A DNA stretch of 64,000 bases from Candidatus Bathyarchaeota archaeon (GCA_963827165.1 CAWGZR010000009.1:224001-288000); one strand, 5' to 3'; counted from the stretch's first letter, positions 3,011 to 61,810 are shown. The notes: a model not told the origin generated them from the letters alone. Numbers and translations: made by a program.

Positions 3011-3160
3011 AGGACTGTCTAATTGTGTATGATAGTGTCTGGACTTGTATGTAGATGTTTAAAAGCGTGTAAGAGTGTATAATATTGTCTTTTTTAGACT
3101 CAACCTGTGAACAATTCAAGTCCCAAACCAAAAAACCATTCTAAAACACAATGGAAAAAA
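3011..3160 (+). repeat. Decamer-array + conserved-motif element, copy A
   Basis: Eight in-register decamers, mostly ending TGT(A/C)T (3011-3090), then CAACCTGTGAACAATTCAAGTCCCAAACCAAAAAACCATTCTAAAACACAA. Confidence 0.75.
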
Positions 3161-3223
3161 ATCTTGTCCAGAAACCATCGGCTTGCCCTTCTGTAGGCTT
3201 CTGTCTTGAAATTTTCAAGCGAT

Positions 3224-3375
3224 TATCTAGCTTTATAGCTTAATCTAGCGCATTTTAGCTTAAAATAGCTTATTTTAGCGCACAGTTGCAATCTATCCAA
3301 GCCCCATTTCAAAAAAGCAGCCCAAAACACAAACAAAAAATTTCTGAACCAAAAAATCGTGAAGACGCCGCCAAA
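3224..3375 (+). repeat. Decamer-array + conserved-motif element, copy B
   Basis: Five in-register decamers ending TAGC(T/G) (3231-3280), then GTTGCAATCTATCCAAGCCCCATTTCAAAAAAGCAGCCCAAAACACAAAC. Confidence 0.8.
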
Positions 3376-3470
3376 TAGAACTTTTGCTGGCTTTCTTTGA
3401 TTTCTATGAGCAATTGACGGGTTTTGACTTTTAGGTTATTTTAGATTTTTAGGTTTCTTTCAGGTTTTGC

Positions 3471-3625
3471 TAAGTGGACTTTAGTGAACGGTAATGGACG
3501 GTAAAGAACGGTAGGGGACGGTAAAAGACGGTAAAGGACGGCAAGGGACGGTAATGGACTTTAAAGGACGGATGCTGCAGCTGACCCAAGTCCCTTTTCA
3601 AGAAGGCAACTCAAAACACAAACTG
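3471..3625 (+). repeat. Decamer-array + conserved-motif element, copy C
   Basis: Ten decamers, consensus GTAAAGGACG (3471-3570), then GCTGCAGCTGACCCAAGTCCCTTTTCAAGAAGGCAACTCAAAACACAAAC. Confidence 0.88.
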
Positions 3626-3777
3626 AAATTTGCCACCAAAATAAACGCCATGATTCAACCTCTTTTAGCCGTGTGAAATGATGGGTGTATAGTTTGGTCG
3701 TATTCGAGCTTGAGGGTGATAAACGTAAAATTGATTAATAAGAAGTGCTTTTGTCATAGCGTTAAGGTGTAAATTGA

Positions 3778-4200
3778 ATGGCAAGCAATGTCGTCGTTAG
3801 AGACATTATGTCGAAAGACGTTAAAACCGTGCGCAACGATACCTCTGTTCAAGAAGTTATCGCGTTGATGAACAAATACGATAAAGACGCAATTCTTGTA
3901 GAGCAGAGTGGAAAGCCAACTGGAATCATAACCGTCAAAGACGTTTTGGTGAGAGCCGTAGAACATGGCGTACCCCTAAACACAATCATTGCAAGAATGG
4001 TCTACACAAACCCACTTGTGACAATTGACGAAAACGCAACCGTTGAAGAAGCAGCGAACCTGATGAAAGAATGGCGAATCAAACACTTACCAATCGTTGA
4101 CAAAAACGGCGCCCTCGTAGGCATGGTAAATGACAGGGACGTAATTTACGCGGTTCCTGCCTTGATGTCTACGATGGAAGAGTTCTGTAGAACAAAATAA
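3778..4200 (+). CDS. CBS-domain pair protein
   Basis: VRDIMS...GIITVKD and HLPIVD..G.LVGMV CBS motifs; stand-alone 140 aa. Confidence 0.92.
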   Translation: MASNVVVRDIMSKDVKTVRNDTSVQEVIALMNKYDKDAILVEQSGKPTGIITVKDVLVRAVEHGVPLNTIIARMVYTNPLVTIDENATVEEAANLMKEWRIKHLPIVDKNGALVGMVNDRDVIYAVPALMSTMEEFCRTK

Positions 4201-4288
4201 GCGCCTACGGTAACCTTTTTTTATCTTTCACAATTTTTAAAAAAATAAAGCAAACGATTTTTCCAAAAAACTATTTGGGAGAGAGAGC

Positions 4289-4579
4289 TTAGGCTTTTTG
4301 TTGTTTAGCCCATTCTTCTTTGACAATTTTTGTAATGTTTTCCAGGTTCGGCTGCGCGGTTAAGTCGGCGATGACATTGTTGAGTTCGTTTTTTATTAGC
4401 AAGGCTAGTTCGCCCGGTCTTAGCGGTTCTGGACGGGTCGATTGATAAACCCGCAAGGCGCGCATGCAAAACTTCACCATGACTTCTTGAAGTTCACTCT
4501 GCAAATCGGTTAGTTCGTTTTTGCTGTTTTTCATAAGTTTGCTGAATCCTTTCGAATCCCAATTTCCTTCTTCTGCCAT
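4289..4579 (-). CDS. Hypothetical helical protein
   Basis: Clean ~96 aa ORF downstream of pyrG on the same strand; charged, coiled-coil-like composition. Confidence 0.7.
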   Translation of the reverse strand: MAEEGNWDSKGFSKLMKNSKNELTDLQSELQEVMVKFCMRALRVYQSTRPEPLRPGELALLIKNELNNVIADLTAQPNLENITKIVKEEWAKQQKA

Positions 4580-4649
4580 TTCCAATCAAATCCTAACGTT
4601 TCATGTAAACGGGTCATAATAGCCTTTTCTAAAAAACGGAGCAATCAAC

Positions 4650-6278
4650 TTAGGAGATGGGGGTTTTGGGTTTCCCAAGCTTCTTGTCGAGGCATGCTTG
4701 GATGAAACCTGCGTATTCGGGTTCGGGTCTCCCCGGTCGGCTTTTGAATTCTCCGTGGAACTGCGAGGCAAAGAAGAAGTATTTATCGGGTAACTCTAGG
4801 GTTTCCATTCGCCGTCCATCGCTGCTTTTGCCTGTAAAACACAATCCATGGTTTTTCTGCGTTTCTTGAAAGTCAAGGTTCACTTCGAAGCGGTGTCGGT
4901 GGCGTTCGTGGATTTCTTCTTGCTGATACATCTTGTAGGCTAAAGTGCCTTTTTGCAGGATAACTTTGTGGGCGCCCAATCGCATCGTTGCACCTTTAAT
5001 CTCTATTCCCCGTTGCTCAGGCATCAAATCGATGACAGGATAATGGGTTTCAGGGTTAATTTCCGTGCTGTTCGCATCTGTCAAGCCGCAAACGTTCCGA
5101 GAAAACTCGATGACAGCAAGCTGGAAACCGTAGCATATGCCAAGGAATGGGATGTCGTTTTCCCGTGCAAACTGGACAGCCAAGATTTTGCCTTCGGTGC
5201 CGCGCGGTCCAAAGCCGTAGGGAACGAAGATGCCGTCGAAGTTTGCTAGGTCTTTGACGCATTGGGGTTCATGCTCCAATTTTTCGGCTTCAAGGTAGCT
5301 GATGCAAACTTTGGTTTTGCATGCGCCGCCGCCGTGGCGAAGCGCTTCAGTCATGCTGACGTAACTGTCAGTCAACCCTGCGTATTTGCCTACAAGTGCG
5401 ATTTTGACTTCATGCTCGGGATGCACTACACCGTCGACGTATTGCTGCCAGACGCTGAAGTCTTTGCCGTCGCATTTGAGGCACAGTCGCTGGCAGATGA
5501 AGTCGCCCATGCCTTGCCCATCCAGAATAAGCGGCACTTGATAGACGGATTCCGCGTTGTAGGAGCAGAAAACTGCGCTCTCAGGGATTGTTCCGAAGAG
5601 AGCTATTTTACGCAGAATTTCGTTGTCAATCATTTTGGGGCTTCGGGCAACTATTGTGTCGGGTTGAACTCCGATTCGACGCAGTTCGTTGACGCTGTGC
5701 TGAAGGGGCTTAGTTTTCATTTCACCCGTGACATCTAAAATCGGCACTAAAGCCACATGAACGTAGAATGTGTTTTCGTAGCCTTCTTCTAGCCGCATCT
5801 GGCGGATAGCTTCCAGAAAAGGCAACCCTTCGATGTCGCCTACTGTACCGCCTACCTCAGTGAGGACAATGTCGGCGTTGACTGCTTTGCCGGCGTTCTT
5901 GATGCGGTTTTTGATTTCGTTAGTTACATGAGGCACGATTTGGACGCATCGCCCCAAAAAATCTCCTCGCCGTTCTTTTTCAATAACGGCTTTGTAAATC
6001 ATACCTGTAGTTAAGTTGTTTTCTTGTTTGAGGCTTAAATCCAGAAATCGTTCGTACCAGCCGAGGTCAAGGTCGGTTTCGCCGCCGTCGTCGGTTACGT
6101 AGACTTCGCCGTGCATGTACGGGTTCATTGTTCCCGCGTCAACGTTCACGTAAGGATCAATTTTTACCACGGTGCATTTTAGGCCTCTTGCCTGAAGCAT
6201 TTTTCCGATGGAAGAAGTCAATATGCCTTTGCCGACGGAACTTAACACGCCTCCCGTGATGAAAATGTACTTAACCAT
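4650..6278 (-). CDS. pyrG: CTP synthase
   Basis: KYIFITGGVLSSVGKG, KIDPYVNVDAGTM, GICYGFQ glutaminase Cys, RHRHRFE. Confidence 0.98.
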   Translation of the reverse strand: MVKYIFITGGVLSSVGKGILTSSIGKMLQARGLKCTVVKIDPYVNVDAGTMNPYMHGEVYVTDDGGETDLDLGWYERFLDLSLKQENNLTTGMIYKAVIEKERRGDFLGRCVQIVPHVTNEIKNRIKNAGKAVNADIVLTEVGGTVGDIEGLPFLEAIRQMRLEEGYENTFYVHVALVPILDVTGEMKTKPLQHSVNELRRIGVQPDTIVARSPKMIDNEILRKIALFGTIPESAVFCSYNAESVYQVPLILDGQGMGDFICQRLCLKCDGKDFSVWQQYVDGVVHPEHEVKIALVGKYAGLTDSYVSMTEALRHGGGACKTKVCISYLEAEKLEHEPQCVKDLANFDGIFVPYGFGPRGTEGKILAVQFARENDIPFLGICYGFQLAVIEFSRNVCGLTDANSTEINPETHYPVIDLMPEQRGIEIKGATMRLGAHKVILQKGTLAYKMYQQEEIHERHRHRFEVNLDFQETQKNHGLCFTGKSSDGRRMETLELPDKYFFFASQFHGEFKSRPGRPEPEYAGFIQACLDKKLGKPKTPIS

Positions 6279-6666
6279 GATTTTCCCCGCAATGAACTAC
6301 ATCTTTCCCTAAGTCGTAATATAACTCTTTTGTGTGCACAGCTGCAAAAATGTGCAGCCACCCATGGTTTAACTCAATAAAATAAGCAACATAATAGGGC
6401 GAGGGCACACTTTTGCGCCTGGAAACACCTTATCGTCGTTTATTTTTCCATTCTACAGAGGAGATTATTTCTGAAAAGATGTGCTGTTTTTGTGTAATTC
6501 GCATGGTTTACTATATTCAGACCGTCTTTCCATGGTTTTCATTTGGCATCATGCTCAACTTGATAAAGCCTTATTTAGGGAAAAAGCCTTTGGCTTATAT
6601 GAGCGAGAGCGTTTTTCAACAGAAATTATTTTGCTCTCACTCTCTAAATTTAGGAGAAAAAACCGA

Positions 6667-9342
6667 TTGGAAAAATCTAAAAGTAAATCTATTGCCATTC
6701 TGATTGCAGCCTTTTTAGCAATTTCAATGGGAACAGCGCTATTACTAACACCGAGCGCCTATGCTCATTCGCCTCCTTTGAATATTCCAACATACGCGTA
6801 CGTCAATGCAGCGCCCAACCCTGCAGGAATAGGCCAAACAATTAACGTCGGCTTCTGGCTCGGCTTACCACCACCCACAGCAAACGGCCCATATGGAGAC
6901 AGATGGCACAACCTTACAGTGATCGTAACGAAACCTGACGGAACCAACCAAACACTGGGATCGTTCACTTCGGATGACACAGGAGGAACCCACACTAATT
7001 TCATCCCATCAACCACCGGCAACTACACTTTCCAAATGAGTTTCCCAGGACAAACCCTAGCAGGCAATAACCTGGCACCAGGAACAACTAGCCCTTTTAT
7101 CGGCGACTATTACCAACCCAGCATCAGCGCACCATTTACGTTGACAGTACAACAGAGCGCAGTGCCGTCAAAAGCTCAGGCATCACTTCCTGCAAACTAC
7201 TGGTCGCGTCCAATAGAATCCGTGAACAGTTTGTGGTACACTATCAGCGGAAGTTGGCTCGGGTTTGGACAATCAACTTTTGCAAGCACTGGACAGTACA
7301 ATGCCACCGCAAGTTATAATCCGTATACGACTGCACCTACGACAGCTCATGTCATGTGGACAACTCCTGAAGCCCTAGGAGGCTTAATCGGAGGGGAATT
7401 TAGCACCGCCAGTAGCCCAGCAACCAATTTCTATTCGACTTCGCAATACGAACCTAAATTTGCACCCGTAGTGATAGCTGGTATACTTTATTACACGCAG
7501 TACCCTGGCGCTTCAACTAACCCAGCAGGCATCGTCGCCGTAGATTTACAAACAGGAAAAACGCTTTGGACCGATAATGCAGCCAATCTCGGTGGAGGCT
7601 CGCCACAGCAAACAGCCTTAACAACGTCTGGAGTTGTTACAGTTCTAAGATGCGGTCAAGTGCTCGACTACGTTACTCCAAACCAATACGGCGCACTAGC
7701 ATACCTCTGGACAACTGGAACCCCTGCGGGAATCGTTACAGGTGCAGGAACAACCACATATAACATGTTTGATGCATTGACTGGACAATACATTCTGAGC
7801 GTTGTTAACGGTAGTGCAATGACGATGACTGAAGATCAAGGCGGAGATTTGATAGGCTACTACATCAACTCAACCACTGCAACCGCGCCAAGGCTAGGCG
7901 AATGGAACTCTACCCAGTGCGTGGAACAAGCCTTCTACGGAGCATCCGCTGCCGGTTGGGAATGGAGACCAACGCAAAACGGAATCGCAGCTTTCTCTCT
8001 TGGAGTCATGTGGACATCACCAATACCCACAACGCTTAACGGCGTCGCTTTGCCATCGATACCAGTTTTCGGCTTCGGATACCTTAACGGCGGAGTTGTT
8101 GTGAACAGCGGCGTAATTTGCTTACAGGCTGCTGGGACCTCAGGTGTATCGGACTTCGAAGGCGGCTACGCAATTGAATTGGGATACAGTACAACAACAG
8201 GTCAAATGCTTTGGATCACTAACAGAACTGAGGCGCCATTTGCAAGAGTGGTCGTTGCAGGCGCAGATGGAAACGGAGTCTTCGCTGAAGTCACCTACGA
8301 AACAAACACAGTTGTCGGATACAGTCTATACACTGGCAAACAACTTTGGGTAACTAATCTTCCCGACCCAAATCCCTATGACAGCATCGGCGGCTACCAA
8401 TCCATCGTTGCAAACGGAGTAATTTACATGTGGAGTTTCGGAGGAAACATCTATGCGATTAGTACAACCAATGGGACAATCATTTGGCATACAGATACAA
8501 ACGCACTCTCTGGCTTCTCTGGGTCTGACACGCCTTACGGTGTATGGCCACTTTGGACTTTCACCTGCGGAAGCATCGCCGACGGAATGCTCTTTGTCCC
8601 TGAAGGACACATGTATAGCCCACCGCTTTTCCGTGGAGCAAGCGAACTGGCAGTAAACCTCGCCACCGGAAAGCTTGTATGGAGCATACTTGGCTTTGAC
8701 ACAACCAGCGGACCAGCAATATCAGACGGAATCATGGCGACAATCAACTCATACGACAACCAAATATACGCTTTCGGCATGGGACCAAGCAAAACCACAG
8801 TCAACGCACCTGACGTCGGCGTCACAACTGCCACGCCCGTAACAATAACTGGTACTGTAACGGACATTTCACCTGGCGCTCAACAAAAAGCAGTTGCAGC
8901 AAACTACCCCAACGGGTTGCCATGCGTTTCCGACTCAAGCATGACACCGTTTATGGAAGCCGTTTATATGCAGCAGCCAATGCCAACCAACATAACCGGA
9001 GTACCAGTCACAATAGCGGTCACAGACAAAAACAATAACTGCTACAATATTGGCACTGTGATGACTGATCCGAACGGATTCTATAGCTTAAACTGGATAC
9101 CAATCATTAGTGGGAACTTTACGGTTACAGCAACTTTCGCCGGCACACAGTCATACTATGGGTCTTCAGCTAATTCAGCATTCTATGCTAGCTCGCCCGC
9201 AACGACAATAGCCCCAACCTCAACACCAAATACTGGAGTAGCCACACAAACAACCCTGATGTACGGAATTGTCGCCATAATCATTGTGATAATCATAATC
9301 GGCGCAGTAATCATGTTGATGCTCAGTAGAAAACGGCCATAA
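6667..9342 (+). CDS. Large PQQ-like beta-propeller repeat surface protein with C-terminal TM anchor
   Basis: Signal peptide after TTG 6667 (AGGAGA RBS); repeated 'DLQTGKTLW / TTGQMLW / ATGKLVW' blades; Ig-like ends; C-terminal TM + RKRP. Confidence 0.88.
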   Translation: MEKSKSKSIAILIAAFLAISMGTALLLTPSAYAHSPPLNIPTYAYVNAAPNPAGIGQTINVGFWLGLPPPTANGPYGDRWHNLTVIVTKPDGTNQTLGSFTSDDTGGTHTNFIPSTTGNYTFQMSFPGQTLAGNNLAPGTTSPFIGDYYQPSISAPFTLTVQQSAVPSKAQASLPANYWSRPIESVNSLWYTISGSWLGFGQSTFASTGQYNATASYNPYTTAPTTAHVMWTTPEALGGLIGGEFSTASSPATNFYSTSQYEPKFAPVVIAGILYYTQYPGASTNPAGIVAVDLQTGKTLWTDNAANLGGGSPQQTALTTSGVVTVLRCGQVLDYVTPNQYGALAYLWTTGTPAGIVTGAGTTTYNMFDALTGQYILSVVNGSAMTMTEDQGGDLIGYYINSTTATAPRLGEWNSTQCVEQAFYGASAAGWEWRPTQNGIAAFSLGVMWTSPIPTTLNGVALPSIPVFGFGYLNGGVVVNSGVICLQAAGTSGVSDFEGGYAIELGYSTTTGQMLWITNRTEAPFARVVVAGADGNGVFAEVTYETNTVVGYSLYTGKQLWVTNLPDPNPYDSIGGYQSIVANGVIYMWSFGGNIYAISTTNGTIIWHTDTNALSGFSGSDTPYGVWPLWTFTCGSIADGMLFVPEGHMYSPPLFRGASELAVNLATGKLVWSILGFDTTSGPAISDGIMATINSYDNQIYAFGMGPSKTTVNAPDVGVTTATPVTITGTVTDISPGAQQKAVAANYPNGLPCVSDSSMTPFMEAVYMQQPMPTNITGVPVTIAVTDKNNNCYNIGTVMTDPNGFYSLNWIPIISGNFTVTATFAGTQSYYGSSANSAFYASSPATTIAPTSTPNTGVATQTTLMYGIVAIIIVIIIIGAVIMLMLSRKRP

Positions 9343-9594
9343 AGGAGAAGGCAAAAAATCCACTTCTTTTTTTTCTTTAATCTTTTTCGGCGTCCCCCGA
9401 AATCGTTGATATTTTGGATTAAATATTTGAAGCCCAAATTTAAGGCGGCCAGCAATTTTCTCTTTCCGAAAATATTCCCCTGCAACATAAGAACAAAGAA
9501 TTTTTTTGGTTTGCTTCCGAGTTAAGGAAAAAAGAGTTCCTTTCCTTCAGAAATATTTTAATTAAGAACACACTAAGTATGAGTGGAGACTAAA

Positions 9595-9828
9595 ATGCCA
9601 AAGGCCTTTGTGTTGATAAATGTGGAATCGGGCTCAGAAGAGGAAGTTCTTCAGCAAATCAAAAAAAGCGAAGGGGTAGAAGAAGCGTATTATTCGTATG
9701 GGGTATACGACATCATAGCCAAAATAAAAGCTGACACTATGGAGAAACTTCGGGAAGCGGTGTCGCAGAAAATGAGAACTATAAACAAAGTCAGGTCGAC
9801 GTTAACGCTGATAATGATGGAAGAATAA
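9595..9828 (+). CDS. Stand-alone Lrp/AsnC ligand-binding (RAM) domain protein
   Basis: AFVLIN...GVEEAY..YGVYDII.K...RSTLT; no HTH domain. Confidence 0.92.
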   Translation: MPKAFVLINVESGSEEEVLQQIKKSEGVEEAYYSYGVYDIIAKIKADTMEKLREAVSQKMRTINKVRSTLTLIMMEE

Positions 9829-10025
9829 GAAACATTTTGGCTCCAAGTTTTTTTCTTCAGATGAGACAAAACTTTCTGTCTAATTCATCAAAGTAATTTG
9901 TAAAGCCCAGTTCAGATTTGACCATTAATCCTTCTTTGCTGGTCAAGCAAGGCGGTGCCGAGTTTCTTTGCATATTGCTTAAAAGGTTAGCTACCGAAAG
10001 GTAAGGGAAGGCTTGCAAATTCAAC

Positions 10026-11054
10026 ATGGAAAAGGCTAAGAGACCACTTGAGCAAAAGGTAATTCTTGCAGTTCTGGTTTTGGGCTTAATAGCCTTCGTA
10101 CTCTACTTCGTTCTGTATATTAACCCTGAACAAGTTGCCAAGATTCTGTCAAAAACAAACTTGGTTTATTATGCCTGGGCATTCGTCGCTTACACAACCT
10201 ACGCCCTCTTCTCTTCACTGGTATGGCGAAGTCTGCTTAGCAGCCTATCCGTGAAAATTACCACACGAAAAGCTCTGCTCTTCACATGGGTCGGCTTATT
10301 TTTCGACGCCACTCTTCCGCAGCTCGGATGGTCAGCTGAAATCTCGAAAACTTACCTGCTAACCAAAGACTCAAGCCTCAGCGCAGGAAAAATCGGCGCC
10401 TCAGTCGTCAGTCAAAAAATCTTCAACATGGCAATAACAGTTGTCGCGATGTCTCTTGGTTTAGGCCTAGTGCTTGTTGGGTACCCTTTGCCTTTTCTAG
10501 TTACTTTTCTGATTTCCTTCGTCTTGGGTCTATTAATTTTGACTTTAGGCGTAGTATATTTCATTAGCGTTAAGCCGGCGGCCACCAAAACCCTGTTAAA
10601 CTGGGCGGTACGTGTGATTTCGTTTTTCCGAAAAACTTGGAACCCCCAAGGTTTCAGACAAAAAGCGGAGGGACTTCTCGATACGTTCCATGTTGGGATG
10701 CAGCATTTGAGGCAAAACTCGAAAACGTTGGTTAAACCCATTGTTTATTCGGTCATGAGCTTTGTTTTTGAAATCTCTGTTACTTTCATCACTTTTGTGG
10801 CTTTGGGTTACCCAGTACCCGTAGACAAAGTGCTCATTGTATTCACTTTGACGGGCACGCTGCAAACAATCGGTGTTACCTTCTTTGGCTTTCCTGAATT
10901 AATAATGAGCATCTCGTTCACTGCGCTGGGGATCCCTGCGGCTCTGAGCGTTTCAGTTACGCTGCTAACGAGGGTTGTGAGCTTGTGGTTCCGACTTGTC
11001 GTCTCTTATTCCGCGTTGCAGTGGGCGGGAATAAAAATTATGTTTAACAAGTAA
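10026..11054 (+). CDS. Lysylphosphatidylglycerol-synthase TM / UPF0104 flippase-like membrane protein
   Basis: About 8 TM helices; W..LL, FF...P...AE..K.YLL and LL.R....W patterns. Confidence 0.8.
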   Translation: MEKAKRPLEQKVILAVLVLGLIAFVLYFVLYINPEQVAKILSKTNLVYYAWAFVAYTTYALFSSLVWRSLLSSLSVKITTRKALLFTWVGLFFDATLPQLGWSAEISKTYLLTKDSSLSAGKIGASVVSQKIFNMAITVVAMSLGLGLVLVGYPLPFLVTFLISFVLGLLILTLGVVYFISVKPAATKTLLNWAVRVISFFRKTWNPQGFRQKAEGLLDTFHVGMQHLRQNSKTLVKPIVYSVMSFVFEISVTFITFVALGYPVPVDKVLIVFTLTGTLQTIGVTFFGFPELIMSISFTALGIPAALSVSVTLLTRVVSLWFRLVVSYSALQWAGIKIMFNK

Positions 11055-11150
11055 ACGTTTTTTTTTGGTGGTTAGCGAATGTTGCCTTGGCTGTCGGCTA
11101 GGAAACTTTTTAATGCAGCCTAAACTAATCAGTTATTAGGACAGATTGAT

Positions 11151-11387
11151 ATGCCAACAGCCTTTGTACTGATAAACACTGAAATTGGTTCAGAATCAGA
11201 CGTTTTGAAAGAATTAAAGAAAGTCGAAGGGGTAGAGGAAGCATCAGCCGTTTACGGAGTCTATGACATCGTTGCAAGAGTCAAAGCGGATACGATGGAC
11301 AGGCTGAAAGAACTGGTGACATGGCGCATCCGCCGCCTAGACAAGGTACGCTCAACATTGACAATGATTGTTGTCGAAGAAAAGTAA
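11151..11387 (+). CDS. Stand-alone Lrp/AsnC ligand-binding domain protein
   Basis: MPTAFVLINTEIG...VYGVYDIVARV...RSTLTMIV. Confidence 0.93.
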   Translation: MPTAFVLINTEIGSESDVLKELKKVEGVEEASAVYGVYDIVARVKADTMDRLKELVTWRIRRLDKVRSTLTMIVVEEK

Positions 11388-11488
11388 GCTTTTTTGACTC
11401 CTTTTCTTTCAAGTAAAAATAGGAAGTTTTTTTGTTATTTTTAGCATGCAAATAGGGTTAAACCTTAATGCAGATTCTGAGTGATTTG

Positions 11489-11593
11489 ATGAAAATAAAA
11501 GGAGAGTTCAAATGTCCTTGGTGTGGAAACGGTTTTCAAAACGGGAAAGACTTAGACACTCATGCAAGGGGACACTACCCAAACCCAATTTAG
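11489..11593 (+). CDS. C2H2 zinc-finger microprotein (34 aa; below ORF-track cutoff)
   Basis: Manual translation MKIKGEFKCPWCGNGFQNGKDLDTHARGHYPNPI*, matching F-x-C-x2-C-x3-F-x5-L-x2-H-x3-H. Alternative in-frame ATG at 11468. Confidence 0.8.
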   Translation: MKIKGEFKCPWCGNGFQNGKDLDTHARGHYPNPI

Positions 11594-12243: not shown

Positions 12244-12326
12244 TCGTTCCAACCCAATTTTTCGGGTTAAGCAACATTTTTTTAACCTTACAGTTTATTC
12301 TCTACTTGAGCTTGGAGAATCGCTGC

Positions 12327-48898: not shown

Positions 48899-48936
48899 AG
48901 ATTCATCCGCCTAAAAAGAAGGTTTAGATGCGCTAA

Positions 48937-53512: not shown

Positions 53513-53835
53513 GGATAGATGAAATATACTAAGATTTGAGTACGAATGCGTGAGTCCCAGTGCCAATAGTCCTTTCAACCTATTTTGATTTTGTTCATGT
53601 TAAAGACTTTTTTTTCGCATGTGCAAACTTTCTTATCTAATGGAGAAGAAATAATTTGATAGAAAAAAAGCATCACAAATGGTTAAATTAAATCCAATTA
53701 TTTTCCTTTTACACAAAATATAATATGATTCAGATTGTGCTTGTTGCCGCCGCAGTCAAGTCAAAATGTTTAAGAACAAAGTCTCCGTAAGAGAGGATAG
53801 GTAATGAACGTTGAACTTTTTAAGGAGACAAAACT

Positions 53836-54363
53836 TTGTCAAAAATTAATCCCGGCTCTAATTTTAACGAAGATAATGATATTAAGACGGCGCGACCTGG
53901 CGGGATGCAAGATATTGATATAAAGGAACCTAAAATTGACAGCGAAGGCAAACTTCATTGCACAATCTGCGATAAAGTATTCAATTCGAGACAAGATTAC
54001 GTCAGCCACGCTTTATCCAAGCATCAACAGCAGACCAGCAAGACAGTTCATGCCCAAAAGTTTTTAGCAACAGTCTCATACGACCACGGTTTTCATTTCT
54101 ATACGTCTATTGGGATATACACAGGGGAAACAGCAGTTAATTTAACAACATTTGCCAAAGAACTTGGAGTGGTGCCTATAGAGTGTGTTGATTTCCATTT
54201 CAAAAGGGCTGACTTTCAGAAGTGGATAACTGATACAATTGGAGATAATGAATTAGCAACAGCCATCGGAGAGGTTGAGATGGAGCTTGCAGGTGAACCA
54301 TTGAGACTAATGCTTCTCAGCATCGTTATCGCAAGAGTAAAAGAACTTGAAAATCAAAGCTAA
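53836..54363 (+). CDS. C2H2 zinc finger + DUF5752-like domain protein
   Basis: CTICDKVF...Y..H....H, then FHFYT..G.YTG..A..L..F.....FH..R.DFQKWI....GD.ELA. Confidence 0.82.
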   Translation: MSKINPGSNFNEDNDIKTARPGGMQDIDIKEPKIDSEGKLHCTICDKVFNSRQDYVSHALSKHQQQTSKTVHAQKFLATVSYDHGFHFYTSIGIYTGETAVNLTTFAKELGVVPIECVDFHFKRADFQKWITDTIGDNELATAIGEVEMELAGEPLRLMLLSIVIARVKELENQS

Positions 54364-54580
54364 CTGCAAAGAGCCATGGCGCGGCAATCAAGAAAAAGAA
54401 ATAACGACGTTTGAAAAAGCCTCGGACGAATAAACCTGTTTTCTTTAGTGGCCACTAACTCCTTTCGTTGTTGACCATTTCAAGTCATTAGCAGGTAAGC
54501 GGAGATTAGTCGAGATTTGTGAAATACATAAAAACTATTGATGACTATTAGTCATTTTATTCACTTATTTTTTTTTTTTT

Positions 54581-54705
54581 TTGTTTTTTGACTTTTTGGT
54601 ACGTTTTAATATGTTTTGCGAGACCAGTTGCAACCGATTCAAGCCCCAAACCAAAAAAGCAACCCAAAATACAAAGAACAAATCAGCTGGATCTTCCAAA
54701 AAAAT
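54581..54705 (+). repeat. Decamer-array + conserved-motif element, copy D
   Basis: Short array (ACTTTTTGGT ACGTTTTAAT ATGTTTTGCG), then GTTGCAACCGATTCAAGCCCCAAACCAAAAAAGCAACCCAAAATACAAAG. Confidence 0.82.
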
Positions 54706-54819
54706 TGAGTATGATTCTCCCTTTAAAAAAATAGTCACCAATCGCTTTCTCGTGTGTTGAGTATATTAAAGATAAATATACTGGTAGTGCAATTTCGTAT
54801 CCGTAAGGAGAAAATAAAG

Positions 54820-55242
54820 TTGTCTGTAGCACAAAGGAAGTATTTCAATGAAGTCGCATTACTTGCGGATAAAACAGTTTCTGTAGTTACTAATGACGGA
54901 AAAACATTCATCGGCACAGTCATCGGCATAAATCAGGACAATATGAGTCTCGTGTTGGCTGACGCGAGGGATGAGGCTGGAAAAACGCTTCACCGGCTTT
55001 TCCTGAATGGAAGCGTGGTTAATCAAATTGCAAGCGCGGAAAAACCCTTCGACCTCAAAGCCTTAGCTACAAGACTTGAAAAAGTCTTCCCAACTATGGT
55101 AAAGTTGTATGATGATAAGGGTTTCATCTGGGTCATGGATAAGGTGAAACTGACGGAAAAAGGCGTTGTTGAAGGTTCAGGTCCAGCCGCTGACCGAGTG
55201 CAGAAGGTTTACGACCTGTTCATGAGTGAAGTCAAACCCTAA
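54820..55242 (+). CDS. Lsm/Sm-like RNA-binding protein with C-terminal domain (SmAP3-like)
   Basis: Sm1/Sm2 pattern (V.V....GK.F.G...G......LVL.DA...LNG..V..I) plus C-terminal extension; AAGGAG RBS. Confidence 0.88.
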   Translation: MSVAQRKYFNEVALLADKTVSVVTNDGKTFIGTVIGINQDNMSLVLADARDEAGKTLHRLFLNGSVVNQIASAEKPFDLKALATRLEKVFPTMVKLYDDKGFIWVMDKVKLTEKGVVEGSGPAADRVQKVYDLFMSEVKP

Positions 55243-55991
55243 ATAAACCAGCGCAGCTGCTCCTCTTCTTTCTTCTTTTCTTCTGTAATGCTTCGGATAA
55301 TACCAAATGATTCTAAGATCTTTTTGATTTCGCCGCCGGTTTCATCCAGCCGGGACAAATCGACGTCTATATTCAAGTATTTCCCAAGAGTGGTTAACGC
55401 GTAGCGTGCAGCGTTTATGTCTGGATCCATGCCGGGTGTGTCAACAAGTAGCGAGAATCCTTTCATATCCCTGATCCTCGCTAGTCCAACGGATAGCCCC
55501 GCGATGCCGAAAACGTGGCCGACCATTATTTTTGTTCCCAGATTGAGCGCTTCCTGCATCGTGTCTAAGTCTGTGGCGGTGCTGTATATTCCGGGTACTG
55601 GTTGAGTCTCATCTTTTTTGAAGCCGCCGATTGAAATTACGAAGCGGCAGCCAAATTCTTGGGCTAAATCTAGCACTTTGCCGACGAGTTCATATTGCCC
55701 AATGGTCGTAAGCGCCTGCGTGTTACCGTACCAGATGATTAAGTCGCGTTCGCCCTCTCCCCGTTTGGCATAGTATAGTTCATTTGTGGGTGAGAGAGCT
55801 CTGCCGTCTCCAGTTGTCACGGCGAAATCTTGGAAGGATGAAGAAAATATTTGGACGAATCGTTTAGCTTTAAGTTCTTTTATGAGGTGTAAAGCCGCTA
55901 TGTTTGCGACGAATCCTATGCCGGGAAGTCCTTCGATAAGGATTGGGTCGTTTAGTTTTGGTTTTTCGTTGATGTCGATGGAGCAGACCAT
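55239..55991 (-). CDS. PAC2-family proteasome assembly chaperone
   Basis: LIEGLPGIGFVANIA..HL, IGG, G..GL, T.G..PD..AA, L...L.IDVD.S.L. Confidence 0.92.
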   Translation of the reverse strand: MVCSIDINEKPKLNDPILIEGLPGIGFVANIAALHLIKELKAKRFVQIFSSSFQDFAVTTGDGRALSPTNELYYAKRGEGERDLIIWYGNTQALTTIGQYELVGKVLDLAQEFGCRFVISIGGFKKDETQPVPGIYSTATDLDTMQEALNLGTKIMVGHVFGIAGLSVGLARIRDMKGFSLLVDTPGMDPDINAARYALTTLGKYLNIDVDLSRLDETGGEIKKILESFGIIRSITEEKKKEEEQLRWFI

Positions 55992-56226
55992 GGTTTACAT
56001 CTCTTTTGTCAAGTATAGACAAGCTATTCGATATAAGGATGCTGACATTTCAGTTTAGGCGACATAGCGTTACCATGTTCATGGAAAAACATATTGAGTT
56101 CGCTCTCGACCTTGCCCAAAGTTTCATCTTCCCATGAGAAATCAACAGGTTTCCATATGTGACATGACACGCCAAGGGTAAGAAAGGCATATAAGAGTTA
56201 AGAATGAAACGATAAAGAGACCAATC

Positions 56227-57489
56227 ATGGGTTCTCAGAAAACATCCCTAATCCGCATTGTTCTCCTAATGTTGTTAGTGTTTGCAGCTGTTTTTCCTGT
56301 TTTAACCGCTAAATCTGAGGCGCAGACGAACCAGAATTACTGGGTCACCGTGAAACCGACAGGCGACTCCCAAATGTACACTTCGGTCGATAGGAACTGG
56401 ACGTTGTCATTTGAGGCTGTTTGGAGTTACGGCAGCAATTCAGGTCAACCCATAAGCGATGCGGTGGTCTCAATAGAAGTTTTCGGGGCTTCAGAGGGGG
56501 CATTGGGCACTCTTGATTTGAATACGACTTCGGGATACTTTGTTTTCAATTATTCTTCATCAACGGCGGACAAAATAACTTTCACACCTACCCAACTGAA
56601 AACTCAGGACGGGGCAAAGTGGACGTCCGCCCTCGTAACAAATGACGGAGTGCAAGCTTACGGTTTACAATCAACGCCTGTTACGGTTTGGTGGGATACC
56701 TTCCAAGTGTCCTTGTTGAGCCAAGACACTGACAGCTCGAGCGCAGTTGCATTATCAGTAAACATTACTTATCAACTGCTTCCGCAAGAAGGCTTAACCT
56801 TGCCTGCGGAGGACACGTACTCGAACCAAACGTTCCTGCCTAAAACCGTCATCGGCGCCAACGTAACCATTAACGGAGTTAACGCCCAAGAAACCGGATC
56901 AACAAGCGTTTACTCAGCGAAAACTTCCACAGTTTTCCCTACAGCGTACGTGCTAGTGAAGGTTTCGCAAAGCGGATGGACAACAACCAACACGGCTCTC
57001 AGTTTTGGGCAAAAAGCCAATGGAGTCTTTTGGAGTTACGCGGAAATAATCGCGCTGATTGCTGTTGCTGCCACATTGCTGCTGTATGTTATGTTGGCAA
57101 GAAAGCCTAGTCGATCTGCTTCAAGGGGAGCTATATTCTTGTTGATAGGCAGTGCCTTGTTGCTGGCTACCTCCGTGGTCAGCCTTTACTGGGGCGCGGT
57201 TGCGGTGGAGGCTTCGCTTCATGGGTTTAACTGGCTTATCTTGGCGGTCACGAGTCTTTGCGCCTTCGCTGTAGGTGCGTTGGGCGGAGTGATGTCTCTT
57301 AGGCGGAAGAACGAGGCGTTGGTTATTTTCGCAGTCTGTGTTCCGCTTATCGTTAATCTTAGCATGGTGAGTTATGCGTTGGGTGCTTACTCTTTAGCGG
57401 TTCCGTGGATGTTCATTTTCGCGTCAACGATTACTTCGATAGCGAGTGGGTTGTTAATTGCTCATTTTGATGACCAATTCACCAAATAA
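56227..57489 (+). CDS. Hypothetical secreted-domain + multi-TM membrane protein
   Basis: Signal peptide, S/T-rich beta domain, about 5 C-terminal TM helices. Confidence 0.75.
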   Translation: MGSQKTSLIRIVLLMLLVFAAVFPVLTAKSEAQTNQNYWVTVKPTGDSQMYTSVDRNWTLSFEAVWSYGSNSGQPISDAVVSIEVFGASEGALGTLDLNTTSGYFVFNYSSSTADKITFTPTQLKTQDGAKWTSALVTNDGVQAYGLQSTPVTVWWDTFQVSLLSQDTDSSSAVALSVNITYQLLPQEGLTLPAEDTYSNQTFLPKTVIGANVTINGVNAQETGSTSVYSAKTSTVFPTAYVLVKVSQSGWTTTNTALSFGQKANGVFWSYAEIIALIAVAATLLLYVMLARKPSRSASRGAIFLLIGSALLLATSVVSLYWGAVAVEASLHGFNWLILAVTSLCAFAVGALGGVMSLRRKNEALVIFAVCVPLIVNLSMVSYALGAYSLAVPWMFIFASTITSIASGLLIAHFDDQFTK

Positions 57490-57606
57490 CCCAACGACTC
57501 ATAACATACCGAGTTGCCCTTTTTTCTGTCAAGCCAGCTGTGCCGGGTTTGAAGACACCTAGTGTTTTTTTATAGGTGAGGCGTGATTCTTGTTTAGGTT
57601 TAAAAG

Positions 57607-59232
57607 TTGAGTTTCGAAATAAAACACAAAGACCTGCTGGGAAGAATAGGGAAGCTAAAGACGAAAACCGCAACGGTGGAGACTCCGCTTCTTTACCCTG
57701 TGATTAACCCAAGCATCCAGCTTGTCACACCTAAGAAACTCAAGGAAACCTTCGGGTTTGAAGCAGTTATAACTAACTCATACATTCTGCGGAAACGTTA
57801 CGGCGATGTAGTTGTTGACCAAGGCTTGCACAAGTTTCTGGACTATGATGGTGCAGTAATGACCGATTCGGGAGCCTACCAGATTCTTGTATACGGCGAA
57901 GTTGAAGTCAATCAGAAACAAATCGTTGCTTACCAAGAAGGCATCGGCAGCGACATAGCCACTATGCTGGATATACCGACAGGCTGGAAAATAACCAAGG
58001 AGCAAGCACAAGGTACTGTAGATGAAACATTGCAGAGAGCGAAGGACTTTTTCAAAGCCAAGACTCGCGACGACATTTTATGGGTTGGGCCAGTACAGGG
58101 CGGAAGGCATCTAGATTTAGTCGCGAAGTCAGCCAGTGAAATGGCCAAGCTTCCCTTCCAGATCCACGCGTTAGGAAGCCCCACAGAAGTAATGGAAAGC
58201 TACCGCTACGATGTCTTAGCAGACATGATCTTAACCGCGAAAAAAGGGTTACCCCTTGACCGCCCGCTGCATCTGTTCGGCGCTGGGCACCCAGCCATGT
58301 TCTCGTTGGCCGTGGCACTTGGATGTGACCTCTTCGATTCAGCAGCCTATGCTCTTTATGCCCGCGAGGATAGGTACATGACTGAAAACGGGACTAAACG
58401 CGTGGCTGAACTGGATTATTTCCCGTGCTGTTGCCCCCGATGTGCAGTGGAGACACCCAAAAGCCTGATAAAGAAACCGAAAGAGGAACGTGAGGTTTTC
58501 TTAGCTGAACACAACCTCTATGTCTGTGCGGCTGAGATCAGGCGGATAAAGCAAGCCATCCGCGAAGGCAGGTTATGGGAACACACCGAAATGCGGGTCC
58601 ACGGACACCCTGCTCTTCTGTCCGCCCTCAAAAAACTTCGCAGCCACGCTGACCTTCTGGAAACGTACAGTCCCACAGTGAAAAGCAGCGGATTCTTCTA
58701 TTTCGACTCCGTCGGACTTGTGCGCCCCGAAATCACACATTACCGCAAACACTTAACCGAACGCTATGACCCGCCCAAAGACGCCAAAGTCCTCTTTCTC
58801 GTACCCCAAACCAGAAACAAGCCGTTCCACAAGGCGCCTGAGTTCAAGAAAGTCAGGCAGCTTTTCAGAGTTCTTGGGGAAGATTTGACGCGGCAAATTC
58901 ACGTTTGCGTTTACTCTGCCCCATTCGGCGTTGTTCCTCTGGAACTTGACGAGGTTTACCCGCTAAGTCAGCATGAAACAGCTTTGCCGCTTGACTTAGA
59001 AACCGTGACTTACGTGGCAGCCCAGGCAGTGGAATACGTCAAACGATCGAGCTATGAAAGTGTCGTTTTGCTCAACGACCCTAAACTATGGCAGGACACC
59101 GTCAAAACCGCAGTCAATTTCGCTTGCGGCAACAAAGGTATACCATTTGAATCAGTTGAGGCAAACGCATCGGTCCCCAAAGAGGTTTTAAACCGATTAA
59201 GCAGTATTCTTCGAAAACAGTTAAGCGAATAA
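57607..59232 (+). CDS. tgtA: tRNA-guanine(15) transglycosylase (archaeosine)
   Basis: ETP...PVINP, ITNSY, MTDSGAYQ, GPVQGG, HLFGAGHP, DLFDSAAY, Zn site CCCPRC...HNL. Confidence 0.97.
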   Translation: MSFEIKHKDLLGRIGKLKTKTATVETPLLYPVINPSIQLVTPKKLKETFGFEAVITNSYILRKRYGDVVVDQGLHKFLDYDGAVMTDSGAYQILVYGEVEVNQKQIVAYQEGIGSDIATMLDIPTGWKITKEQAQGTVDETLQRAKDFFKAKTRDDILWVGPVQGGRHLDLVAKSASEMAKLPFQIHALGSPTEVMESYRYDVLADMILTAKKGLPLDRPLHLFGAGHPAMFSLAVALGCDLFDSAAYALYAREDRYMTENGTKRVAELDYFPCCCPRCAVETPKSLIKKPKEEREVFLAEHNLYVCAAEIRRIKQAIREGRLWEHTEMRVHGHPALLSALKKLRSHADLLETYSPTVKSSGFFYFDSVGLVRPEITHYRKHLTERYDPPKDAKVLFLVPQTRNKPFHKAPEFKKVRQLFRVLGEDLTRQIHVCVYSAPFGVVPLELDEVYPLSQHETALPLDLETVTYVAAQAVEYVKRSSYESVVLLNDPKLWQDTVKTAVNFACGNKGIPFESVEANASVPKEVLNRLSSILRKQLSE

Positions 59233-59294
59233 CCTTGGTTTAAGGTGGCTGAAACCGAAGTCATCCTCTTTTTTTGTCGATCTTCCTTTCTCAC

Positions 59295-59440
59295 ATATTT
59301 TTGTAGTCCAGCGAATCGTTCTTTGTATTTTGGGTTGTTTTCTTGGTTTGGAGCTTGAATCGGTTGCAACTATTCGCCCAAAACATCTCAAAACATCTCG
59401 GAACATCCCAAAACATCTCAAAAAGTCAAAAAAGACAACA
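59295..59440 (-). repeat. Decamer-array + conserved-motif element, copy E
   Basis: Array AAACATCTCA x4 plus degenerate units (+ strand 59381-59440). Minus-strand motif GTTGCAACCGATTCAAGCTCCAAACCAAGAAAACAACCCAAAATACAAAG is near-identical to copy D. Confidence 0.88.
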
Positions 59441-59459
59441 AAATGAAACCGCAGATTTG

Positions 59460-59640
59460 TGAGCGGTGGGTCCACATTTTTTGGGAGGAGAAATTTTTTG
59501 TTTGCGTTTTGAGTTGCTTTCTTGAAATAGAGTTTGGATTGGCTGCAACAGTTCTCTAAAAACATCTAAAAAGCTCTAGAAACATCTAGAAAAATCTATT
59601 TTCATCTAAAAACATCTAGAAACATCTAGAAACATCTGAA
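59460..59640 (-). repeat. Decamer-array + conserved-motif element, copy F
   Basis: Nine decamers, consensus AACATCTAGA (+ strand 59551-59640). Minus-strand motif GTTGCAGCCAATCCAAACTCTATTTCAAGAAAGCAACTCAAAACGCAAAC; tail resembles copy B. Confidence 0.88.
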
Positions 59641-59830
59641 AAAGGCATTCTGCTCCTTTGGCAAGTAGATTACTGCGAAGTCTTCGCCGTTTCAATTGAG
59701 CCTTGACAAAGTACAATTGTATTTTTTGTAGCTCGCTTCGTGCAGTCTTGAGTTTTAAACTAATCTTTTTTAGCTTGCTCAACCTATTGAATCAGAACCG
59801 CAACCTTTAGCCCCAAAAGGAGATGTAAAC

Positions 59831-60430
59831 ATAGAATCTATCTACGCAGACTTACACATCCACACCATCTACTCCAGCGATTCTCTTCTACAACCTAAAA
59901 CCCTTGTAGACATGCTCTCCGCGCACAGCTTCATCAAGGCTGCAGCAGTAACCGACCATGACAGCGTGAGAGGCGTCAAGCTTACGATTGAGTTGGCAAA
60001 GGCTTACCCAGACATCCTAATAATTCCAGGAGTTGAAATCAGCACTGATCGCGGCGACGTTCTAGTTTTGGGAACGGAGGAGCTGCCGCCTAAACCCTGG
60101 AGCCCAGAATGCGTGGTTGATTATGCGAAGGGGGTGGGTGCGATTACGGTTGTGGCGCATCCTTTCCGCGAATACGGCATGGGTGATGTGGCGAGAAACT
60201 ACAAGTTTGACGCTATTGAGGTTCTTAACGGGAACTCGTCAGCGAAGGCGAACAGTGAGGCTAAAGCGTTTGCGAAAAGCTTGGGTTTGCCGGGTACGGC
60301 GGGCAGCGACGCCCATCAAGTGTCAGAGCTTTTCAGCGTGAACGCAAAAATTGATTGTGCACTAAATGTTGAATCTGTTTTGAAGGCACTCGAGAAGGGT
60401 TCCGTTTCGGCTCAAATAACAAAGGGATAA
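59831..60430 (+). CDS. PHP-domain metal-dependent phosphoesterase; probable ATA start
   Basis: DLHIHT..SSD motif lies upstream of the first ATG; also AVTDHD, PGVEIST, AHPFR, IEVLNG, GSDAH. Confidence 0.9.
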   Translation: MESIYADLHIHTIYSSDSLLQPKTLVDMLSAHSFIKAAAVTDHDSVRGVKLTIELAKAYPDILIIPGVEISTDRGDVLVLGTEELPPKPWSPECVVDYAKGVGAITVVAHPFREYGMGDVARNYKFDAIEVLNGNSSAKANSEAKAFAKSLGLPGTAGSDAHQVSELFSVNAKIDCALNVESVLKALEKGSVSAQITKG

Positions 60431-60531
60431 ATGCCTTTGAGCATTTTTTTAGCTGGATTTTTTGAGGTTTAAAAGGAAACCTTATTCTGGGGGCAAGACT
60501 ATTTGCACGATTTATTGGCGATTGAAAACAT

Positions 60532-61437
60532 ATGGGTAATAGCATGACTGAGCCGCAGCCGCTTAAAGAGCCGTCTAAGGGGCAGCCCAAGGAGCAGGAT
60601 CGCTTCAAATTTGAAGTTGTTTACCTGATTCCGATACTAGCAAGCATAATATTCGGCCTAGCCTGCGCAAGCCTTCTTAAAACTCAGGCCCCAGCAACCA
60701 TACCCGTTACCCCTCTTCCCCAAAACACTGCTTCGGGCTCCTTCGGCAACGCGTTTTACTTCGTCATTTTGGTGGCGGTCGCGGCAACGATATTTTATCT
60801 GTTGCTCAAACGTAGAAGCCGAAGAATCATCAAAGGCTTAATCGTTGTCGCCATGACGACCGCGTCCCTCCTGCTATCTCTCGTCTACCTAGCTGCAGTC
60901 TTCTCTTATCTGCCAAGCAGCTATGGGATCTTATGGATTCCGCTATCCATAGCCATCACGGCAGCGTTTGACTACGCCGTTTTCCGCCTAGGCAGCATCG
61001 CTCGAAACGTCGCAGTCATCGGCATCGGCGGCGCACTTGGGATGTTCTTCGGTTTTGAAATCCAGCTATGGACAGCGGTGCTGATCCTAGTTTTCCTCGC
61101 GGTTTATGATATTTTCGCGGTTTATCGGGGTCCAGTCGGCAAAATTGCTCAGTCAGCCGGCGGGCTCGAGGACTTGCAGGGTTTAAGCTACGACTTCCGC
61201 GACATCCAAATGGGGCTGGGCGATTTGGTTTTCTACTCGATGCTGGTTGGAACCATGTTCTTCAGCTTCTCAAGCATATTGCCCTGCCTCGTTTCGTTAG
61301 TGGGCATAATAGCAGGCTCAATCGTCACGTTCTTCATTCTTGAACATAAAGGAATCTTTCCAGGTCTACCCTTCCCAATCATGCTCGGTTTAGCGGGCGG
61401 CTTAATTATGGGGCTCGTGATTCTGCCACTTCTTTAG
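60532..61437 (+). CDS. Presenilin/signal-peptide-peptidase-like GxGD intramembrane aspartyl protease
   Basis: LAVYDIFAV, MGLGDLVFYS and PGLP (PAL-like) motifs; about 9 TM helices. Confidence 0.9.
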   Translation: MGNSMTEPQPLKEPSKGQPKEQDRFKFEVVYLIPILASIIFGLACASLLKTQAPATIPVTPLPQNTASGSFGNAFYFVILVAVAATIFYLLLKRRSRRIIKGLIVVAMTTASLLLSLVYLAAVFSYLPSSYGILWIPLSIAITAAFDYAVFRLGSIARNVAVIGIGGALGMFFGFEIQLWTAVLILVFLAVYDIFAVYRGPVGKIAQSAGGLEDLQGLSYDFRDIQMGLGDLVFYSMLVGTMFFSFSSILPCLVSLVGIIAGSIVTFFILEHKGIFPGLPFPIMLGLAGGLIMGLVILPLL

Positions 61438-61464
61438 GGGATTCTCGATCACATGCTTTTCGCT

Positions 61465-61630
61465 TTGGCAGTTTTTTTGTTGTTTGTTTCTTGGGTTGCT
61501 TTCTTGGTTTAGGGCTTGAAATGTCTGCAGGTTGCGTCAATTAACGTCAACTAAAGTCAACTGTCGTCTGCAAAAGTCAACCATAGTCAATAGAAGTCTA
61601 CTAAAGTCAACTAACGTCAACAAAAGTCAA
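61465..61630 (-). repeat. Decamer-array + conserved-motif element, copy G
   Basis: Ten decamers, consensus CTAAAGTCAA (+ strand 61531-61630). Minus-strand motif CAACCTGCAGACATTTCAAGCCCTAAACCAAGAAAGCAACCCAAGAAACAAAC. Confidence 0.88.
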
Positions 61631-61724
61631 CAAGCGACCCCGTCACTCAACGTACGGTTCAAATATTGTAACGAAAATAAGCATCGAAGAAAAGCTGATT
61701 ATTGTCCGCGTCTTTTGCCTCATG

Positions 61725-61810
61725 CATCTCGTTGCGCTCTGGTGTCTTTTGGTTTGGAAATTGAGGCATTTTCAGGTTGGGTCCCTAATAGTCAATAATT
61801 AGTCAAAAAC
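61725..61810 (-). repeat. Decamer-array + conserved-motif element, degenerate copy H
   Basis: Minus strand: TTGACTAATTATTGACTATTAGGGACC CAACCTGAAAATGCCTCAATTTCCAAACCAAAAGAC. Confidence 0.6.

Follow-up and report, generated by a model that had tools for sequence, protein, structure and literature searches.

The window analysed here, a 64,000-nt stretch of DNA from Candidatus Bathyarchaeota archaeon (GCA_963827165.1, CAWGZR010000009.1:224001-288000), carries several copies of a two-part intergenic module, in which a tandem array with a period of 10 bp stands on one side of a conserved motif of about 66 nt. It can be stated with high confidence that this module, as a promoter-operator region, is associated with the genes of tiny PhS018/MraZ-like regulators, and judged by its sequence it is probably a self-contained promoter-operator cassette of these regulators that has mostly been spread without the gene. 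Motif copies were located by nhmmer with a profile built from 60 copies of the genome, and at a cut-off of E <= 0.01 the assembly (3.13 Mb, 14 contigs, 94.5% complete) contains 93 of them in 66 clusters (46 single, 14 double, 5 triple and 1 quadruple). Seven clear copies, A to G, lie in the window (E 1e-6 to 5e-14), and coordinates given without a contig are window positions.

The gene was found when the small open reading frames (ORFs) around the 93 copies were clustered, which resulted in one real protein family of about 92 residues. The genome has seven loci of this family (five intact, one with a stop codon and one frameshifted), and at all seven the gene is on the array side, with its start adjoining the distal end of the array and on the strand opposite to that on which the element had been described in an earlier, sequence-only reading. 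From this order of motif, array and gene it follows that the functional direction is opposite to the one assumed there: what had been taken as an array followed by a motif is, on the other strand, a T-rich motif, the array, a ribosome-binding site and the ATG of the 92-residue protein. In the congeners, the motif is found 47-195 bp upstream of the ATG, with the array in between, at 71 of 82 gene loci (23 of 29 in an earlier subset), an array of at least 3.4 units is directly upstream of the ATG at 58 of 87 gene loci, and where the module is complete, 5-70 bp separate the end of the array from the ATG. Of 61 genomes sampled from the genus, 37 contain the family (1-15 matches per genome, many of these with internal stops), and of 301 sampled across the class, 22 do, representing 12 of 107 genera. 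Box arrays and an AAGCTTAAAT-like element occur also outside the genus: in other genera, families and orders of the class, the ATG of homologues is likewise closely preceded by short arrays of boxes in 10-bp phase, with a TATA-like AAGCTTAAAT upstream, whereas the T-rich part of the motif has been seen only within the genus. No conserved gene follows the 92-residue gene in 27 loci, neither a partition nucleoside triphosphatase (NTPase) gene nor an rsmH/fts operon is present there, and a toxin-antitoxin pair could be ruled out because the gene is solitary in these loci. Next to the module C8:7669, which lies outside the window, two small ORFs (contig C8, about 5800-7700) resemble by eye what we take to be a HicB/HicA-type pair, and in genome G012 (C1:7626-10973) three tandem copies of the small gene (L041, L109, L110) lie within 3.4 kb, each with only a degenerate motif and one to two units upstream.

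The AlphaFold2 model of the 92-residue protein (predicted local distance difference test, pLDDT, 90.5) has a duplicated strand-strand-helix-strand (E-E-H-E) pattern, and in this model about 90 residues form two tandem beta-beta-alpha-beta halves that make up one barrel, as in the single-chain swapped-hairpin barrel of PhS018. When a profile of 73 members was compared with the PDB, PhS018 of Pyrococcus horikoshii (2glw) was matched with E 2.2e-5, AbrB chains matched weakly, and MraZ chains matched with E 0.44-0.6. Foldseek with the model gave PhS018 first (template modelling, TM, score 0.72-0.75, E 4.7e-4), followed by MraZ chains with a probability of 0.96-0.98 but a TM score of only 0.46-0.50, among them MraZ-promoter complexes. 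For four copies of the protein, the oligomer prediction scored 0.46 and the control 0.37, which counts neither for nor against an oligomer. No Pfam family was reached by the protein. On the strength of the model and of these matches, the 92-residue protein is assigned to the PhS018/MraZ/AbrB-type fold. PhS018 has the same length of 92 residues and is the best match both by profile and by structure, although it is only 19% identical to the protein found here. It is titled 'hypothetical protein' in the PDB, to our knowledge no function has been assigned to it, and no DNA target of PhS018 is mentioned in titles or abstracts among the matches listed.

The arrays in front of these genes are built from 3-11 units, each with a conserved box of 4-6 bp and a variable, mostly A/T-rich spacer. 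Box columns were fixed in a single reference copy of each class, and when scored in the remaining arrays of the class they show a conservation of 0.92, as compared with 0.74 for the spacers, the pattern being seen in 40 of 43 arrays; these figures are descriptive, as the array copies are related to each other. There are about 13 box classes in the genome, the box phase relative to the motif is similar across all of them, and in clusters the modules of different classes are arranged head-to-tail. At least three units are present in 77 of the 93 copies (median 6.4, maximum 11.2). The claim that a 10-bp periodicity is tied to the motif holds genome-wide: over the 100 bp of the array side the lag-10 match averages 0.546, as compared with 0.312 on the other side and a genome background of 0.255 (standard deviation 0.053), 79 of the 93 array sides exceed the background by more than three standard deviations, and all 38 strong 10-bp arrays of the assembly adjoin a correctly oriented motif. 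Few arrays have another period (three of period 9, six of period 12, none of periods 8 and 11). Support from outside of the assembly was obtained as well, since contigs from independent metagenome runs span the arrays E and F, one of them being without exactly 10 bases inside array F (at 59610), from which it can be concluded that the arrays are real and change by whole units. Part of array G is replaced in a 93%-identical relative.

Each array is quite likely the cognate operator of a regulator, with one protein bound per helical turn. A 58-protein tree shows that protein clades keep their boxes across species (AGTCA, TAGTC, AAAGAT, GGGTA, AAGTA, AGACA), and the genes of the species that share these boxes are only 70-78% identical in DNA, a distance at which intergenic DNA free of constraint would be expected to differ. 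Within one tight clade, proteins with T or A at residue 18 go with CGTT boxes and those with K there go with (C)GAC boxes, and this residue is a candidate base-reading position. The near-identical proteins that differ at residue 18 are encoded at the congener loci L028, L031, L085 and L033 on the one hand and L035, L070 and L065 on the other.

A precedent for such an arrangement is MraZ. According to a study on Mycoplasma genitalium MraZ (PMC12957436), that regulator binds four boxes of the form GTG(G/T) that have six-nucleotide spacers between them, one subunit occupying the major groove at each box, and transcription starts within the first of them; MraZ acts as a repressor of its own promoter, and both box spacing and box number matter for repression. 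In the archaeal module, too, short boxes recur every 10 bp at the regulator's own promoter (a 4-bp box plus a 6-bp spacer in M. genitalium), and like the MraZ structures (PDB 9r4j, 9sz7, 9qlg, 1n0e; Foldseek probabilities as above) the protein has two AbrB-like halves in one chain. The differences are that the protein has 92 residues instead of about 150 and is devoid of the ring-making helices of MraZ, that the host is an archaeon with promoters of the B recognition element (BRE)/TATA type, that the arrays have 3-11 boxes instead of 3-4, that there are many paralogues with different boxes and dozens of orphan operator copies, and that no rsmH/fts (dcw-type) operon is behind the gene and PF02381 is not reached. 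By analogy, the logic is the same as that of the MraZ operator, except that the protein is half as large, the promoter signals are archaeal, and there are 3-11 boxes and many classes of specificity.

Of the two alternatives that the sequence-only reading had proposed, the helically phased protein-binding array is the best-supported one, with boxes at one-turn spacing before genes of the MraZ/AbrB fold, but nothing points to a chromatin or centromere function, and the motif looks like a promoter with oligo-T runs and not like a nucleation site. We regard it as highly improbable that the modules are structural DNA, i.e., curved or protein-wrapping sites for histone or nucleoid positioning or a ParR-type centromere with the motif as loading point. 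The period of exactly 10 bp with phased A/T-rich spacers, the array length of about 100 bp, and the 20- and 30-bp super-periods that Tandem Repeats Finder gives for some arrays would be in line with it, but what is conserved is the class-specific box and not the A/T phasing, some congener arrays are even G+C-rich (e.g. GAGACGCAGG), there are 66 sites per chromosome, the arrays precede the gene of their own small DNA-binding protein, as judged by its fold, and this gene has no partition NTPase or other conserved partner beside it. ParR-parC and the omega heptads are likewise tandem arrays of short direct repeats in front of the operon of the binding protein itself, which are cooperatively bound and serve as autoregulatory operators, but ParR and omega proteins have ribbon-helix-helix folds, a partition NTPase gene alongside, and one locus per replicon, unlike the module described here with its many chromosomal sites and no partner gene. 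A plasmid-type partition centromere was rejected on the same grounds of a missing conserved neighbour gene and of 66 clusters in place of one locus per replicon.

The motif itself can, on balance, be read as a core promoter that is preceded by terminator-like T runs. A BRE/TATA matrix was derived from the upstream regions of the 36 ARAGORN-predicted transfer RNAs (tRNAs) of the genome (consensus CGCAAACGCTTAAAA, median tRNA score 9.5). At 27 of 71 gene loci of the genus, the best hit of this matrix occupies one fixed place inside the motif, in gene direction, and the highest score is 14.3. The BRE/TATA-like element at this place is AAAGCTTAAAT in many species and GGGGCTTGRAT in most copies of the genome studied here; it is followed by the conserved TTGCAGGTTG, and the array begins about 25 bp past the TATA. 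From the usual archaeal geometry, transcription would be predicted to start about 25 bp past the TATA, within the first array unit. The arrays as well contain matrix matches in gene direction that recur in 10-bp phase and score 6 bits or more, in 63% of the 93 copies, as compared with 11% in the other direction, and these patterns make it fairly clear that the direction of transcription would be that of the gene. The gene-direction strand has the sequence aattTTTTt.TTTGTGTTTTGggTTGcTTTtTTG upstream of the TATA-like place, and T runs of at least five are found on this strand of the motif in 90 of the 93 copies (at least six in 82, two runs in 57), whereas the other strand has them in 13 copies, which corresponds to the background of 14%. 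Oligo-T runs are the intrinsic termination signal of archaea, and the T-rich stretch could therefore insulate the cassette from upstream transcription. One of the tRNA calls, near position 157457 of contig C4 outside the window, is a tRNA-SeC, a type of call that is often false.

It is improbable that the modules are instead small-RNA genes, in which either the C/A-rich motif strand would be transcribed from a TATA-like last array unit, or an RNA of 10-nt repeats would end at the T runs of the next module. The last unit before the motif is indeed often TATA-like, such as TTTAAAGGA or TTTTATGA, the modules are self-contained and independent of neighbouring genes, and where modules are clustered, each has the T runs of its successor behind it. 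However, matrix hits of at least 6 bits in motif direction are found for only 1% of the copies in the last two units and for 11% in the rest of the array, as opposed to the 63% in gene direction, and the complete form of the module precedes a protein gene. There is also no sign of a conserved RNA fold, as RNAalifold gave 0.0 kcal/mol for 60 aligned motifs on either strand, and Rfam 15 gave no match at gathering score in the whole window and none at E <= 1 in 2950-3700. Two further readings of the motif were rejected: frames are open on both of its strands, but only as a consequence of T being absent from one and A from the other, and the ORF clusters that result share no conserved start, and a promoter of the downstream gene in the originally assumed orientation disagrees with the random orientation of the copies and the few promoter-matrix matches in that direction.

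The mechanism that would emerge for the regulatory cassette is a simple one. In gene direction, a T/G-rich stretch with one or two oligo-T runs would be followed by the BRE/TATA-like element, TTGCAGGTTG, the array and the gene, and with units of 10 bp every box would be on the same face of the helix. Copies of the protein would then occupy neighbouring boxes, one for each turn of the helix, in the manner of MraZ, and the bound protein would block initiation or early elongation at its own promoter. At least 13 box classes would have diverged within the family, each paired with a separate clade of the protein, and the cassette would have been copied to many intergenic sites, with loss of the gene from most copies.

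The sequence-only reading had counted at least eight copies of array plus motif, of which the seven clear ones are recovered by nhmmer, whereas the eighth, H, is a decayed remnant that was recognised by eye and stays above E 0.01; strands, AAC and TTT subtypes, and the shared tails of B/F and D/E are as described there. A 24-nt motif core has six matches with at most three mismatches in the window and none in 100 shuffles. Tandem Repeats Finder reports period-10 arrays at B, C, E, F, G and one decayed site, and misses those of A and D, for which lag-10 matching gives 7.3 and 5.3 units. On the originally assumed strand, motif position 1 is at 3099 (A), 3280 (B), 3569 (C) and 54622 (D) on the plus strand, and at 59375 (E), 59554 (F) and 61536 (G) on the minus strand; all strands given in the following are those of the gene direction and thus opposite.

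Module A (3016-3164, minus strand; nhmmer E 1.3e-6) has its motif at 3099-3164 and an array of seven units at about 3016-3088 with the box ATACAC on the minus strand. It is the array-most member of a cluster C-B-A, in which module B (3236-3345, minus) consists of an array at 3236-3279 with the box AGCTA and a motif of the TTT subtype at 3280-3345, and module C (3474-3634, minus) of an array of 9.7 units at about 3474-3571 with the box CGTCC and a TTT-subtype motif at 3569-3634. Between B and C, a decayed 10-bp array without its own motif is found at 3429-3468 (minus; unit about TTTTAGGTT, 4.2 copies of period 10 with 75% matches in Tandem Repeats Finder). Module A is 93% identical to the module C10:80188, which precedes a 92-residue gene, and an identity of 93%, over more than 550 bp, is also found between the whole A-B-C cluster and the cluster on contig C10, which still ends in the gene; at the A-C site, the congener G013 has a full cassette with gene. 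In the window, array A is followed after about 110 bp by the start of a 413-aa ORF (1660-2901, minus), which has a weak NHL-repeat match (E 0.0015) and stands where the paralogous C10 cluster has the regulator gene. About ten host genes, including this ORF, start within 200 bp past an orphan array and are candidates for a control by the module.

Module D (54565-54687, minus) is an orphan with an array of five AACAT-type units at about 54565-54617 and the motif at 54622-54687, and it points at the 3' end of an ORF at 53836-54363. A run of 22 T with one G (54568-54589) is directly at the distal end of array D, and T-rich runs precede several other arrays as well. At the D site, G016 has the module together with a 42-residue fragment of the 92-aa gene. 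Modules E (59310-59433, plus; motif 59310-59375, array 59379-59433, box ACATC) and F (59489-59642, plus; motif 59489-59554, array of 8.8 units 59555-59642, box ATCTA) share a spacer of 680 bp, which is only 0-150 bp long and free of modules in the four congeners G003, G016, G013 and G001. Module G (61471-61633, plus) begins about 35 bp past the stop of an ORF at 60532-61437 and has the motif at 61471-61536 and an array of about ten units with the box GTCAAC at 61535-61633. At this site, G013 has a module with another box (CGTCC, nine units), a remnant of the motif is left in G004, and the site is empty in G016 and G003. The alignment pairs 61471-61633 of the window with positions 252-400 of L147 (G013:C2:61700-62900), and in both species the stop of a membrane-protein gene precedes the module by about 40 bp. 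The different boxes at the G site reflect either a turnover of the class while the site stayed the same or a hot spot at which modules were inserted more than once. The decayed module H (about 61731-61810, plus) consists of a motif remnant at about 61731-61782 and two to three TTGAC-type units at 61783-61810.

As cassettes with the gene or with its fragment are found at the A-C and D sites and on C10, orphans arise at least in part from full cassettes, and their origin is at least partly a segmental duplication with subsequent gene loss, some of the sites being old. Gene remnants beside orphans were found in none of three frames within 520 bp, with the exception of C5:220365, which retains about the first 11 codons of the gene (E 0.47). 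The similarity between copies, which are 68-96% identical, stops sharply at the array start and at +54 to +80, indicating that the dispersed unit is array plus motif. An orphan may be a decoy, a regulated promoter or a relic; judged by the intact boxes that the 59 orphan clusters keep in their sequences, they most likely act as extra binding platforms, either decoys or regulated promoters, with some relics among them.

Several observations speak against the regulatory reading. The gene is present in only 7 of the 66 clusters, leaving the 59 as orphans, whose orientation towards neighbouring genes is random (34 away and 32 toward on the array side, 31 and 35 on the motif side), and for 15 clusters the flanking genes converge, an arrangement that calls for no promoter. 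Roughly half of the box classes (CGTCC, ATCTA, ACATC, AGCTA, TTGACA, CGTCA) are without a cognate protein in an assembly that is 94.5% complete, and the CGTCC-class protein of G013 has no close relative in this genome (at most 43% identity). The agreement of clades and boxes may stem from common descent of whole cassettes and is no proof of recognition, and because such descent contributes, it is suggestive only. The TATA-like place in the motif is weak in this genome, where only 7.5% of the 93 copies reach 6 bits, which makes the start site uncertain, and GTTTTGGGTTGCTTTTTTG is conserved more strongly than a mere T run or a terminator role would require. The MraZ family PF02381 is matched by only 3 of the 73 members, at best with E 0.013 and far below the gathering score, and binding as well as transcription are so far predictions, a search for RNA runs that contain the sequence of 54000-62500 having listed none.

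A selfish, non-autonomous mobile element that is spread by a recombinase or by recombination would have no regulatory role at most sites, and the link to the gene would then only mark its origin. Such an element would explain the random orientation and the clusters between convergent genes, the location of 85 of the 93 copies outside of ORFs of at least 100 aa, the absence of E and F from the orthologous spacer of four congeners, the sharp limits of similarity, and the head-to-tail clusters of different classes. It would also agree with the patchy distribution in the genus, as a search with the motif pattern gave matches in 13 of 24 congeners plus one single match elsewhere, with 62 in this genome, 59 in G013 and none in many congeners. 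We nevertheless consider it unlikely. There are neither target-site duplications, the longest flank word being 4.45 as compared with 4.42 +/- 0.10 in shuffled pairs (77 copies), nor inverted ends (5.04 as compared with 4.87 +/- 0.11, 77 copies), so that an insertion sequence or miniature inverted-repeat transposable element was rejected, and there is no association with a transposase and no match of the module to plasmid and phage sequences. With copies being only 68-96% alike, there was no recent burst, orthologous sites bear modules in species that are 70-78% identical, and in the orphans the boxes are more conserved than the spacers. The earlier statement that no transposase or CRISPR (clustered regularly interspaced short palindromic repeat) spacers are visible was correct. 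From its alternative suggestion of a process that adds 10 bp next to the motif, of a non-autonomous element, of a non-coding RNA or of templated synthesis, the change of arrays by whole units and the dispersal of copies have been found, but the hallmarks of an element or of an RNA are missing. A CRISPR array or a solitary CRISPR repeat was also rejected, as the only repeat of this kind in the genome, GGTGCATGGAAAAATCCCAAGTAACGGGAATTGAAAG, is unrelated to the motif; the only CRISPR array that was found, with more than 20 of these repeats, is on contig C4 at about 272100-273650, outside the window.

The reading as a regulatory cassette can be extended to a bolder one, which we hold to be rather doubtful: the cassette would propagate itself to new intergenic sites without transposon scars while its regulators diversify, which would result in a dozen or more orthogonal repressor/operator pairs, each with a dispersed regulon of promoters and decoys, and the array class could change at a fixed site by turnover of units, of which the G site with its GTCAAC boxes here and CGTCC boxes in G013 would be an example. 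Short non-coding multi-copy intergenic elements are also known from bacteria, such as the Correia elements of Neisseria and the repetitive extragenic palindromic (REP) sequences and bacterial interspersed mosaic elements (BIMEs), which can bring transcription signals to their neighbours. These have inverted ends or hairpins, and the Correia elements also target duplications, all of which are absent from the module described here, and we know of none among them that is built from a class-specific operator array tied to paralogous regulators. No paper on this element or on dispersed operator-promoter repeats was found at the level of titles and abstracts. What is new here is the predominance of orphans and their random placement, the lack of transposon hallmarks, the analysis of promoter and T runs, the agreement of clades and boxes across species, the length polymorphism by whole units, and the histories of the sites.

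If the cassette is what it appears to be, this would give a function and DNA targets to PhS018-like proteins, and would extend the MraZ style of reading DNA, with one small barrel per helical turn, to archaea with their TBP/TFB promoters. The family comprises many natural pairs of protein and box, including near-identical proteins with different boxes, so that the recognition code is directly testable and could supply orthogonal repressors for archaeal genetics. In the orphans, the operator-promoter region of a regulator would behave as a dispersed repeat family, with 93 copies in 3.1 Mb, which bears on the origin of regulons and of decoy sites.

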